64,000 bases of DNA, taken from contig NZ_OZ244781.1 of assembly GCF_965219595.1 (NCBI RefSeq), positions 133,429 through 197,428 of the forward strand. The letters run 5' to 3'. How positions within the stretch are numbered: the stretch's first letter is position 1; every line of letters starts with the position of its first letter. A program made the position numbers and the translations under genes. Under the pieces are notes generated by a model. That model saw only the letters and a program-made list of their open reading frames with translations, was not told where the DNA came from and made no database searches. Source of the stretch: Candidatus Poriferisodalis sp. Its GTDB lineage: Bacteria > Actinomycetota > Acidimicrobiia > Acidimicrobiales > Poriferisodalaceae. Shown here one piece after another: positions 31,348 to 37,754 of this stretch.

Positions 31348-32247
31348 TCAGCCCAACTCGTCGAGCGGGTCTGCCCAGGGATCGGCGAAAGGATCGTCGG
31401 CAGGGGTCGATCCGACCCCACCGGAGAGAGGGCTGCCGAGCCCTCCGATGGACACTGCCACGCCGGCATCGGGCTCTTCGGGCAGGTAGGGCGTGTAGCC
31501 GTCGGCTTCGAGTGCCTCGGCAAGCTCGGGACCGCCTGAGTCGACGATGCGGCCGTCCACGATCACGTGGACCTCGTCGGGCCGGAGGTACTCCAGCACG
31601 CGGGTGAAGTGCGTGATGGCCAGCACGCCCAGGCCCGCCTCGGTGAGCGCTTCGATGCGGTTGGCGCAGGCGCGCAACGCGTCGATGTCGAGGCCGCTGT
31701 CGATCTCGTCGAGGATGGCGATGCGGGGCTGCAGCACGGCGAGCTGGACGGTCTCGTTGCGCTTCTTCTCGCCGCCCGACATGTCGACATTCAGCGGCCG
31801 CGCCACCAGCTCAGCCTTCAGCCCGACAGCGGCCGCCTCGGCTTCGAGCAGGCTGCGGGTGCGCTCAAGCTGGTCATCGCTCGGGCCGTCATCGCCGGCC
31901 CGCAGCGCAAGCGCCTCGGCCAGTGCTTGGGCGGCCGAGACGCCCGGCACCTCGGTCGGATGCTGCATGGCCAGGAACAGCCCGGCCTGCGCCCGCTCCC
32001 ACGGCGCCAGGCTCAGCACGTCGACGCCGTCGAGGGTGACCGATCCGGCAGTGACCTCGTAGCCCGGGCGGCCCATGACAACGTGCGCCAGCGTGCTCTT
32101 GCCGGAGCCGTTGGGCCCCATGACTGCGTGAACTCGCCCGGAGGACACTTCGAGATCCACGCCCTGGAGGATCTCGGTGTCGCCCGCCGATGCGTGCAGT
32201 CCCTCGATACGAAGCGTGTGCGCGGCCTCGGCGGTCGGAGCGCTCAT
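31348..32247 (-). CDS. sufC: SufC-like ATPase, divergent second copy with a ~50-aa C-terminal extension
   Basis: ATG 32247 overlaps the Rieske stop (ATGA). GPNGSGKSTLA, LAMQHP.EVPGV, SGGEKKRNETVQ and LDEIDSGLDIDAL, followed by the tail ...GSTPADDPFADPWADPLDELG. Confidence 0.85.
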   Translation of the reverse strand: MSAPTAEAAHTLRIEGLHASAGDTEILQGVDLEVSSGRVHAVMGPNGSGKSTLAHVVMGRPGYEVTAGSVTLDGVDVLSLAPWERAQAGLFLAMQHPTEVPGVSAAQALAEALALRAGDDGPSDDQLERTRSLLEAEAAAVGLKAELVARPLNVDMSGGEKKRNETVQLAVLQPRIAILDEIDSGLDIDALRACANRIEALTEAGLGVLAITHFTRVLEYLRPDEVHVIVDGRIVDSGGPELAEALEADGYTPYLPEEPDAGVAVSIGGLGSPLSGGVGSTPADDPFADPWADPLDELG

Positions 32248-32576
32248 GGCAGCACCACCGCCACGCCGTCGTCGCCAGTGCGAATCTCGTACACCGGGAC
32301 CGGCTGGGTGGCGGGGAAGCAGTTCGGACGGCCCGTTCGCAGGTCGAAGCTCGACGAGTGCTGGGGGCATTCCAGCGCGCACTCATCGGGCCACACCCAG
32401 CCGTCGGCCAGCGAGTAGTTCTGGTGACTGCACTGGTCGCCGATGGCGTAGAAGTCGTCGCCGATGCGTGCGAGCGCGATGCGGTGACCCTCGACGTCGA
32501 AGCGTCGGGCCTCGCCGTCGGGCACGTCGTCGTGCTGGCACAGCACGACAGTGCGGGCATCGTCAGCTGTGCTCAT
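32244..32576 (-). CDS. Rieske [2Fe-2S] ferredoxin-like protein
   Basis: CSHQ...(17)...CPQH ligand boxes. 110 aa, in the usual actinobacterial position between sufD and sufC. Confidence 0.88.
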   Translation of the reverse strand: MSTADDARTVVLCQHDDVPDGEARRFDVEGHRIALARIGDDFYAIGDQCSHQNYSLADGWVWPDECALECPQHSSSFDLRTGRPNCFPATQPVPVYEIRTGDDGVAVVLP

Positions 32577-32634
32577 CGCACCGCCTCCATGGCGGTCGAA
32601 CTCATTGCACCGCCTCCGTGGCGGTCGAACTCGT
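32577..32634 (-). repeat. 29-bp tandem duplication (2 copies, 3 mismatches) in the sufD-Rieske spacer
   Basis: CGCACCGCCTCCATGGCGGTCGAACTCAT / TGCACCGCCTCCGTGGCGGTCGAACTCGT. Each copy holds an ACCGCC-N5-GGCGGT hairpin. Confidence 0.9.
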
Positions 32635-35254: not shown

Positions 35255-35271
35255 ATGGAGTCCAGACTCTC

Positions 35272-36342
35272 TCAGGCAGTCTCGAGCCCGTAGGCGGCGG
35301 CCAGCTCAGGGTCGGCCGCCGACAGGTCACGAGCGAGCTGCAGCACCACCCGGCACTGCTTCACCGTGGCATCGTCCTGCATCTTGCCGTCGATCATCAC
35401 GGCGCCGGTGCCGTCGCCCATCTCGGTCACCACCCGCTGCGCCCACGCCACCTCGGCGGGCTCGGGGCTGAAGACCCGCTTGGCGATGGCGATCTGGCTG
35501 GGATGCAGGCTCCACGCGCCCACGCAGCCCAGCAGGTAGGCGTTGCGGAACTGGTCCTCGCAGCCGATGGGGTCGGCGATGTCGCCGAACGGCCCGTAGT
35601 AGGGCAGGATCCCTGCGGTGCCGCAGGCGTCCACCATGCGGGCCAGCGTGTAGTGCCACAGATCCTGCTGGAAGGCAGTGCGAGCATCGTTGCCCGCGTC
35701 GCCGTCGCTCTCGGGCACCGGGTCGGTGCGCACCAGGTAGCCGGGGTGCCCGCCGCCCACCCGGGTGGTCTTCATGCGGCGGTCGGCCGCCAGGTCGGCC
35801 GGTCCCAGCGACAGGCCCTGCATGCGGGGGCTGGCCAGGCAGATCGACTCCACGTTGGCCACGCCGCGGGCGGTCTCGAGGATTGCGTGCACCAGCAGCG
35901 GCTGCTCGATGCCCACCCGGGCTTCAAGCTGAGCCAGCAGCCGGTCCACGTAGTGAATGTCTTCGGGGCCTTCCACCTTAGGCACCATGATCACGTCGAG
36001 CTTGTCGCCGATCTCGTGGCACAGCGCCCAGACATCGTCGAGGAACCATGGCGAGTCGAGGCTGTTCACCCGAGTCCACAGCTGCGTGTGACCGCGCTCC
36101 CACGCCTTGCCCACCTCGATCAGCCCGGCCCGGGCGGCGTCCTTGCTGTCGGCCGACACGGCGTCTTCGAGGTTGCCGAGCAGCACGTCCACCGTGGGGG
36201 CGATGTCGGGCACCTTGGCCCGCATCCGCTCATTCGACGGGTCGAAGAAGTGGATCATGCGAGACGGCCGGAAGGGGATCTCGCGCAGCGGAGCAGGCGC
36301 CCCGAGCGCCAGCGGGGCGAAGAAGTCTTTTGGACTGCGCAT
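35272..36342 (-). CDS. mcl: L-malyl-CoA/beta-methylmalyl-CoA lyase (Mcl1-type)
   Basis: ATG 36342 overlaps the sufB stop (TGATG). [116 protein letters not shown] and [11 protein letters not shown] match Chloroflexus/Rhodobacter Mcl almost block for block. Confidence 0.85.
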
Positions 36343-37754
36343 CAGCCGATCGATCCCTCCATCTGAAGCTCGATCAGCCGGCTCCATTCCACGGCGTACT
36401 CCATCGGCAGCGTGCGCGTCACGGGCTCGATGAATCCGTTCACCACCATGCCCATGGCCTGCTCGGCCGACAGGCCGCGGCTCATCAGGTAGAAGAGCTG
36501 CTCGTCGGCCACCTTCGACACCGTGGCCTCGTGGCCGATCTCGGCGTCACGTGAACCGATCTCCTGGTACGGGTAGGTGTCCGAGCGGCTGTCCTGGTCG
36601 AGCAGCAGCGCATCGCACTGCACGTGGCTGCGGCAGCCGCTCATGCCGTCTTCCACCCGCACGAGGCCGCGGTAGGTGGTGCGCCCGCCGTCCTTCGAGA
36701 TCGACTTCGACACGATCTTCGAGGTGGTCTCGGGCGCTGCGTGCACCATCTTGGCCCCGGCATCCTGGTGCTGGCCGTTGCCGGCATACGCCACCGACAG
36801 CACCTCGCCCGAGGCCTTGGGCCCCATCAGGTACACGGCCGGGTACTTCATGGTGAGCCGGGAGCCGATGTTGCCGTCGATCCATTCCACGTGGGCCTCG
36901 TCGTAGGCGGCGGCCCGCTTGGTGACCAGGTTGAACACGTTGTTCGACCAGTTCTGGATGGTGGTGTAGGTGATGCGCCCGCCGGGCAGCGCCACCAGCT
37001 CGACCACGGCCGAGTGCAGCGAGTCGGTGGTGTACACCGGTGCCGAGCAGCCCTCGATGTAGTGCACCGTGGCACCTTCGTCGGCGATGATCAGCGTCCG
37101 CTCGAACTGGCCCATGTTCTCGGCGTTGATGCGGAAGTAGGCCTGCAGCGGCATCTCGACCTCGACGCCGGGCGGCACGTAGATGAACGACCCGCCCGAC
37201 CACACGGCCGAGTTGAGTGCAGCGAACTTGTTGTCGCCCGGGGGAATGATCGTGCCGAAGTAGCGCTGCACGATGTCGGGGTACTCCTTGACGGCGGAGT
37301 CCATGTCGCTGAACAGCACGCCCTGGGCTTCGAGGTCTTCCCGGTTGCGGTGGTACACCACTTCCGACTCGTACTGGGCGGTGACCCCGGCGAGGTACTT
37401 GCGCTCGGCCTCGGGGATGCCCAGCTTCTCGTAGGTGTCCTTGACCGAGTCGGGCAGCTCTTCCCAGGCGTCGACCTGGCCCTCGGTGGGCTTGATGTAG
37501 TAGTAGATGTCGTCGAAGTAGATCTCCGACATGTCGCCGCCCCAGTTGGGCATGGGCTTGCGCAGGAAGGTCTTGTAGGCCCGCAGGCGGAAGTCGAGCA
37601 TCCACTGCGGCTCGTTCTTGAGACTCGACATCTCGCGGATGATCTCTTCGTCCAAGCCCTTGCGCGGCTTGAAGACGTAGTCCTCCTCGTCGCTCCACCC
37701 CAGCTTGTATTTGCCGAGGTCGATTCCGACGGTTGGCTCGGCGATGTCAGTCAC
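36342..37754 (-). CDS. sufB: Fe-S cluster assembly protein SufB
   Basis: 470 aa, canonical: [41 protein letters not shown] and [17 protein letters not shown]. Confidence 0.95.

Follow-up and report, generated by a model that had tools for sequence, protein, structure and literature searches.

Genes for a predicted malyl-CoA lyase and a candidate malyl-CoA thioesterase inside an interruption-prone suf cluster of Candidatus Poriferisodalis

The window analysed here, a stretch of 64,000 nucleotides, comes from a genome of Candidatus Poriferisodalis (family Poriferisodalaceae, order Acidimicrobiales) that consists of a single contig of 3.68 Mb and is rated 93.5% complete. It contains a suf cluster, for iron–sulphur (Fe-S) cluster assembly, in which two adjacent genes predicted to encode a malyl-CoA lyase (mclA) and a malyl-CoA thioesterase (citE2) lie between sufB and orf137, a gene for a small protein with four cysteines. 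The explanation that we favour, and regard as probable, is that the pair has a history of its own as a module, was relocated into a tolerant junction, is now expressed with sufB and has no role in Fe-S assembly. MclA would cleave beta-methylmalyl-CoA and condense glyoxylate with acetyl-CoA to malyl-CoA, which CitE2 would hydrolyse to malate. In ancestral Acidimicrobiales the module would have been situated beside mcd and mch, ~9-11 kb upstream of sufB. In the ancestor that Poriferisodalis shares with its sister genus it would have moved into the sufB/orf137 junction, a site that accepts insertions across the order; afterwards the sufB promoter would probably have driven transcription of the pair, and translation of mclA would have become coupled to the termination of sufB. 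The linkage would then represent a short-range rearrangement into a tolerant site by a lyase pair that takes no part in Fe-S cluster assembly.

Gene order and its conservation

The minus-strand genes of the interrupted cluster are as follows, in the order of transcription:

37813..38718, minus: LLM-class F420-dependent oxidoreductase (TIGR03620, 333 bits, cut-off 219.8)
36342..37754, minus: sufB (TIGR01980, 702 bits, cut-off 346)
35272..36342, minus: mclA, predicted MCLC-type (S)-malyl-CoA/beta-methylmalyl-CoA lyase, 356 aa (PDB 4L7Z)
34379..35254, minus: citE2, candidate Mcl2-type (S)-malyl-CoA thioesterase, 291 aa (HpcH_HpaI, 160.6 bits)
33951..34364, minus: orf137, four-cysteine protein with a basic tail, 137 aa (no Pfam or NCBIfam match)
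32634..33884, minus: sufD (TIGR01981, 237.7 bits, cut-off 222)
32244..32576, minus: Rieske [2Fe-2S] ferredoxin (PF00355, 66.9 bits)
31348..32247, minus: sufC with a C-terminal extension of ~45 aa (TIGR01978, 281 bits, cut-off 212.8)

The sufB stop codon and the mclA ATG share one base (TGATG at 36340-36344); the gaps mclA/citE2, citE2/orf137, orf137/sufD and sufD/Rieske are 17, 14, 66 and 57 nt respectively; Rieske and sufC overlap as ATGA (-4 nt); and 58 nt separate the end of the LLM oxidoreductase gene from the start of sufB. A preliminary description, made from the letters of the window, had already placed the seven genes from sufB to sufC at these coordinates and on this strand, with the same junctions and the same spacing from the oxidoreductase, and proved accurate in every detail. 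There is only one sufB in the whole genome. An in-frame ATG is also present upstream of mclA in the open-frame list (at 36387), although the start at the overlapping ATG is favoured because the full-length alignment with 4L7Z begins at residue 5. Long open frames of 649-825 aa raised the question of a sufB-mclA fusion, which was ruled out as a high-GC artefact, the two genes being in different frames.

Gene order and one-base overlap are common to 14 genomes of the genus (the window genome, L013-L023, L029 and L030), and two genomes of the sister genus have the identical order. None of the 16 Poriferisodalaceae genomes checked has lost the overlap, and in the sister genus, where TAA has replaced TGA as the stop, it reads TAATG. 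Given this recurrence, the arrangement is neither a chance event nor an assembly artefact. A locus with proteins 98-100% identical belongs to a Candidatus Poriferisodalis metagenome-assembled genome (Poriferisodalaceae, Acidimicrobiia), and the LLM-sufB adjacency is retained in Poriferisodalaceae and in family f47 (synteny in L116, L118 and L029-L033).

Several smaller features of this run were also recorded. The extension of its sufC (31348-32247), ~45 aa, is rich in Pro, Gly and Asp. The sufD-Rieske spacer (32577-32634) consists entirely of two tandem copies of a 29-nt unit, each with GGAGG and an ATG, and varies in length within the genus from -4 to 100 nt. Elsewhere in the window a repeat scan located a perfect 29-nt tandem duplication at 42117-42174, beginning in the last bases of a prolyl oligopeptidase gene, and three tandem 45-nt units at 44700-44809. 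On the same strand 3' of sufC (30373-31234) are genes for a pterin-4a-carbinolamine dehydratase and a Nudix hydrolase; matches to both regions lie downstream of sufC in G041, a genome of a third Poriferisodalaceae genus, and to the dehydratase region in G071, a genome of family f47.

Position of the pair in related genomes

mclA and citE2 were adjacent in 78/80 loci across Actinomycetota (Streptomyces, Amycolatopsis, Nitriliruptoraceae and many Acidimicrobiia) and no neighbour other than citE2 recurred across the 80 loci, so that the two genes constitute a self-contained module with no conserved third partner. Among these loci, suf genes flank the pair on both sides only in Poriferisodalaceae. 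Within the Acidimicrobiales, 33/151 sampled genomes harbour the pair. In related families of the order it is found beside mcd/mch, ~9-11 kb upstream of sufB, and in several Ilumatobacteraceae loci it is 6-7 kb upstream of sufB on the same strand.

The further genes of the window that enter into this comparison are:

47008..48606, plus: mcd, (2S)-methylsuccinyl-CoA dehydrogenase (PDB 8CIW, E 3.2e-151)
46326..46847, minus: Mch-like single-domain MaoC hydratase, mesaconyl-CoA hydratase candidate (Pfam MC_hydratase, 65.6 bits)
21975-22772, plus: second sufC (TIGR01978, 311.6 bits)
22769-24016, plus: sufS (TIGR01979, 536 bits)
24047-24547, plus: sufU (TIGR01994, 136 bits)

When families f47 (G071) and f21 (G045) were compared with the window by tblastx, a single collinear block was obtained. 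It runs from mclA-citE2 through mcd and mch-HhH-GPD to a flavin reductase gene and then to LLM-sufB-(junction)-orf137-sufD-Rieske-sufC, with the LLM gene in the block of G071 only, and converges on sufU-sufS-sufC. The window differs from the blocks of G071 and G045 only in the position of the pair and in the junction genes: in these two genomes the pair directly adjoins the mcd orthologue, whereas in the window it is no longer next to mcd but between sufB and orf137. A collinear block in which only the pair is displaced indicates that the pair moved ~10 kb within its own neighbourhood. No repeats joining the ancestral site to the junction, as possible mediators of relocation, were found in G045, G071 or the window. 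The mch-like and mcd genes of the window (46326-48606) are divergently transcribed and are what the pair left behind of the ancestral ethylmalonyl-CoA subcluster. The preliminary description had seen no obvious rationale for the linkage and had proposed comparing suf-locus synteny across relatives; that comparison, in which the ancestral layout keeps the pair beside mcd/mch and outside suf, puts in its place a short-range relocation from a subcluster ~10 kb upstream into an insertion-tolerant junction.

The plus-strand sufC-sufS-sufU unit lies 7 kb from the sufB...sufC run and converges on it. By profile matches the genome has SufB, SufD and SufC equivalogs together with SufS and SufU. Each of the two SufC paralogues scores above the cut-off of the SufC equivalog model (311.6 and 281 bits), and both are conserved across the order. 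The distance from sufU to the Nudix gene is ~6 kb in the window (24600-30300) and ~60 nt in another genome of the same genus (G015), a difference which points to a recent insertion between the converging suf units.

orf137 was found in 147/151 genomes of the order, has 3720 homologues, all unnamed, carries its four cysteines at the N-terminus and is almost always located between sufB and sufD. As a core gene of the order that natively follows sufB it is not part of the insertion, and we regard it as a candidate for an uncharacterised SUF accessory protein or regulator. (The tallies of 147/151 and 33/151 include two unpublished genomes, G066 and G089, and no specific claim rests on either.) One further genome, G114, has orf137 adjoining sufU-sufS with neither sufB nor sufD nearby.

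The tolerance of the sufB/orf137 junction was surveyed in orf137 neighbourhoods from 40 further genomes, picked to represent different families. sufB and orf137 were less than 120 nt apart in 19/40 families and separated by 0.4-4 kb of extra DNA in 12/40; in the other 9/40 sufB was more than 5 kb away or rearranged. Over all loci examined, at least 12 different and unrelated gene contents occupied the junction, some of them on the opposite strand. They include an SDR in G041 (which gave no mclA match at E 1e-100), enoyl-CoA hydratase in G077 and G100, an EamA transporter, an FHA protein, a DUF2510 protein, an OmpA-family protein, a Wzy-type ligase, GGDEF proteins, LtrA with penicillin amidase, and several unknown proteins. 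The orf137/sufD junction was also often interrupted in the 40-genome survey; in family f21, G118 has an opposite-strand enoyl-CoA hydratase gene there and G045 a gap of 0.9 kb. The position of the Rieske gene between sufD and sufC is conserved across the order. Interruption of suf clusters is thus characteristic of the Acidimicrobiales, with the malyl-CoA pair as one among many sets of genes found at this junction; the contiguous actinobacterial operon that had served as the preliminary baseline does not hold for an order in which sufS-sufU lie on the opposite strand and both orf137 junctions are often broken. Enoyl-CoA hydratase genes recur next to orf137 in different positions (L156:3394-4224, L153:4212-5042 and L115:11358-12320).

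Entry of the pair into the junction took place on two independent occasions, once in Poriferisodalaceae and once in a single family f21 genome, G118, which also has the order sufB-mclA-citE2-orf137. In the mclA tree G118 groups with G045, of the same family, and G071 (support 97), both of which have the ancestral layout, while Poriferisodalaceae form their own clade (support 100); in the sufB tree the partner of G118 is G045 (support 98), and G041 falls with the other Poriferisodalaceae (support 96). Two changes to the state in which the pair is inside suf are needed on the mclA, citE2 and sufB trees, and an approximately unbiased (AU) test rejects a single clade of inside-suf mclA sequences (p 0.00036). 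The sufB/mclA junctions also differ, with a one-base overlap (TGATG or TAATG) in Poriferisodalaceae versus TAG followed by 74 nt in G118.

Function, pathway context and expression

mclA matched the tri-functional malyl-CoA lyase MCLC of Chloroflexus aurantiacus (PDB 4L7Z) with 467 bits (E 2.4e-139, residues 5-353 on 6-348) and the Rhodobacter Mcl1 type (PDB 4L9Y) with 204 bits (E 3.8e-59). Given this far stronger full-length match, the lyase is of the MCLC type and not of the Mcl1 type to which it had at first been assigned. Residues E60, D61, R92, E157, D184 and D318 are all conserved, in mclA and in 45/45 orthologues; by the MCLC criterion Arg92 and Asp318 are catalytic and Glu157 and Asp184 are Mg ligands. 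Members of the MCLC cluster are at least 57% identical to one another (PMC3832036).

The best PDB matches of citE2 are likewise malyl-CoA lyases. In an alignment of 45 orthologues of each protein, however, the position of the catalytic Asp is Glu in 45/45 citE2 sequences versus Asp in 45/45 mclA sequences (DGKMVENLH in citE2, DGKMQDDAT in mclA), with the remaining catalytic and Mg-binding residues kept in both. Across the CitE superfamily and the malate synthases this Asp (Asp318 in MCLC) is invariant except in the cluster around the Rhodobacter sphaeroides malyl-CoA thioesterase, which carries Glu (Zarzycki and Kerfeld, 2013, PMC3832036). The Glu signature is the only sequence criterion available for a malyl-CoA thioesterase, and because citE2 has it we consider the gene a candidate Mcl2-type enzyme; homologues of citE2 bear only generic names in the source records ('CoA ester lyase', 'HpcH/HpaI aldolase'). 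That a malyl-CoA lyase and a thioesterase-like paralogue lie inside the suf run, as had been read from the window, is borne out by the structural matches and the Asp-to-Glu signature. A third CitE-like paralogue of 305 aa, encoded outside the window (G000:C1:3436213-3437130, minus strand), keeps the catalytic Asp and is an alternative lyase candidate.

The pair would most likely provide the last steps of the ethylmalonyl-CoA pathway. This assignment follows from the presence of crotonyl-CoA carboxylase/reductase (Ccr; TIGR01751, 539 bits, cut-off 378.55), Mcd and an Mch-like protein in the single-contig, 93.5% complete genome, together with the lack of any match there to isocitrate lyase (PF00463) or malate synthase (PF01274). 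With the Glu signature of citE2, these findings strengthen the ethylmalonyl-CoA reading put forward earlier. The mcd product is an acyl-CoA dehydrogenase whose closest match of known structure is (2S)-methylsuccinyl-CoA dehydrogenase (PDB 8CIW), to which it aligned over residues 68-527 on 74-546, including the N-terminal extension. The Mch-like MaoC protein, a relative of mesaconyl-CoA/beta-methylmalyl-CoA dehydratases with a single domain and 173 aa, covers half of the MC_hydratase profile and matches PDB 4E3E and 8HGN at ~1e-28, and its RipB/Ich score of 136 bits is below the cut-off. No other ethylmalonyl-CoA genes were present in the neighbourhood of Ccr. In the literature we found no paper that refers to Poriferisodalis, to the ethylmalonyl-CoA pathway in sponge symbionts of the Acidimicrobiia, or to a suf operon tied to that pathway.

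mclA and citE2 are presumably transcribed with sufB, with translation of mclA coupled to sufB termination. Besides the shared base, a GGAGG lies within the 3' end of sufB, 12-16 nt before the mclA ATG, and no sigma-70-like promoter or intrinsic terminator was detected in 30900-39500 by a consensus scan, which is weak for high-GC Actinomycetota. Further downstream, a TANNNT hexamer (TAGCCT) precedes the sufD GTG by 7 nt and a GC-rich hairpin follows orf137; as a terminator this hairpin was rejected, since two species of the genus lack it and shuffled sequences fold equally well (z -0.6).

The genome gave no match to SufR with TIGR02702, a cyanobacterial-type model and the only SufR model tried, in keeping with the earlier remark that no SufR-like regulator is visible upstream. 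In several Acidimicrobiales families a dyad motif of ~26 nt, aTTGTTACTATGGCGGTAGgAGtAAT, occurs upstream of sufB (in L116, L117, L108 and L049, among others; the sites in L118 are 8507-8537 and 5689-5719); it is essentially single-copy per genome, and in G071 precedes both sufB and sufD. This motif is likely to be an operator or promoter for a suf regulator. It was found neither in the whole window genome, including 37755-37812, at up to 6 mismatches in 25, nor upstream of sufB in the sister genus. This result implies that regulation of the cluster has changed in the Poriferisodalis lineage.

Alternative explanations and comparison with known systems

Several observations weigh against the favoured explanation. 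The Mch-like gene is only half as long as usual, and the genome has four mutase-family genes, among which ethylmalonyl-CoA mutase was not singled out. It is from spacing alone that co-transcription and translational coupling are deduced, and, with the dyad motif that is conserved upstream of sufB in other families not found in the window genome, regulation of the cluster is altered in this lineage. Finally, entry of the same module into the same junction on two occasions could indicate selection for co-expression with sufB and not just tolerance. On this last point, suf control might co-induce a malate-synthase-equivalent step under Fe-S stress or iron limitation and so supply malate when Fe-S-dependent enzymes of the tricarboxylic acid cycle are impaired. 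Such a selected linkage would fit the presence of the pair in one junction in two families, the stability of arrangement and overlap across two genera whose sufD is only 52% identical, and a report that ties glyoxylate-shunt expression in marine heterotrophs to iron limitation (PMC11069385). We nevertheless think it unlikely: at a junction with at least 12 unrelated contents, some on the opposite strand, tolerance is sufficient to account for insertion; the pair began only ~10 kb away, which favours a chance relocation over short range; most families with the pair keep it outside suf; and the ancestral upstream dyad was not found in the window genome. It seems to us rather unlikely that in the two lineages that independently put the pair directly behind sufB, Fe-S or iron stress thereby raises glyoxylate-to-malate flux together with Fe-S assembly; if it did, the link reported in marine heterotrophs would exist here in hard-wired form.

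The suf genes might alternatively be already divided into several units (sufB; the pair; orf137; sufD-Rieske-sufC), in which case adjacency would have no effect on expression. The opposite-strand enoyl-CoA hydratase gene between orf137 and sufD in family f21, the dyad motif before sufD as well as sufB in G071, and the window hexamer before sufD and hairpin after orf137 could all be read in this way. Insulation of the pair is decidedly improbable, however, as the conserved one-base overlap between sufB and mclA leaves no space for a promoter or terminator, the two gaps that follow, of 17 and 14 nt, are likewise very short, and the hairpin is neither constant within the genus nor better folded than shuffles. 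Acquisition of the pair from outside the lineage, as foreign DNA inserted into the suf operon, might be suggested by homologues that are 75-79% identical in distant Actinomycetota (Streptomyces, Amycolatopsis) and by the placement of the Poriferisodalaceae clade beside Nitriliruptoraceae in the mclA tree, with weak support (82). This is very unlikely given that the inserted segment has the GC content of its flanks (0.67-0.71), that mcd and mch are still in the window and collinear with relatives, that the pair is single-copy, with no second copy in the genome, and that it is common in Acidimicrobiales. The short-range relocation therefore remains the explanation that we prefer; the linkage is real, and is probably a local rearrangement and not a new mechanism.

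Taken by themselves, the genes belong to known families and are unremarkable. What the locus offers is a case history of an essential gene cluster that collects unrelated genes, with one junction refilled across the order and a nearby module entering it twice. It also provides a functional prediction for a widespread actinobacterial pair, as an MCLC-type lyase with a Glu-type thioesterase, and would assign the final part of the ethylmalonyl-CoA pathway to an uncultured lineage of sponge symbionts. Should co-expression prove to be selected, anaplerotic carbon flow would be tied to Fe-S stress. Annotators should not measure suf clusters of Acidimicrobiales by the operon template of Mycobacterium or Streptomyces.

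The actinobacterial suf operon has the order sufR-sufB-sufD-sufC-sufS-sufU-sufT, as in Mycobacterium tuberculosis. The window genome resembles this type in having SufB, SufD, SufC, SufS and SufU equivalogs and in the place of its Rieske gene between sufD and sufC, and differs in that sufS-sufU and a second sufC are on the opposite strand and no SufR match was obtained with the cyanobacterial model. A contiguous sufB-sufD-sufC run is replaced in the window by one with mclA, citE2 and orf137 between sufB and sufD, of which orf137 occupies this place order-wide and is often separated from both neighbours.

With Chloroflexus aurantiacus MCLC (4L7Z/4L80; PMC3832036), mclA shares a full-length match, the catalytic and Mg-binding residues and the N-terminus of the MCLC cluster, whereas its hairpin loop near residue 210 is longer by five residues. 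The context is also different: ethylmalonyl-CoA genes (ccr, mcd) in the window genome versus the 3-hydroxypropionate bi-cycle in Chloroflexus, with the window mclA located between sufB and orf137. In R. sphaeroides, Mcl1 and Mcl2 together have been described as an 'apparent malate synthase' (Erb et al., 2010, as cited in PMC3832036). The window genome is similar in combining a lyase with a CitE-like paralogue and Ccr, with no canonical malate synthase match, and citE2 has the Glu-for-Asp signature of the Mcl2 cluster. Unlike R. sphaeroides, however, its lyase is of the MCLC and not the MCLR/Mcl1 type, and the two genes are adjacent, as a module that is fixed in Actinomycetota.

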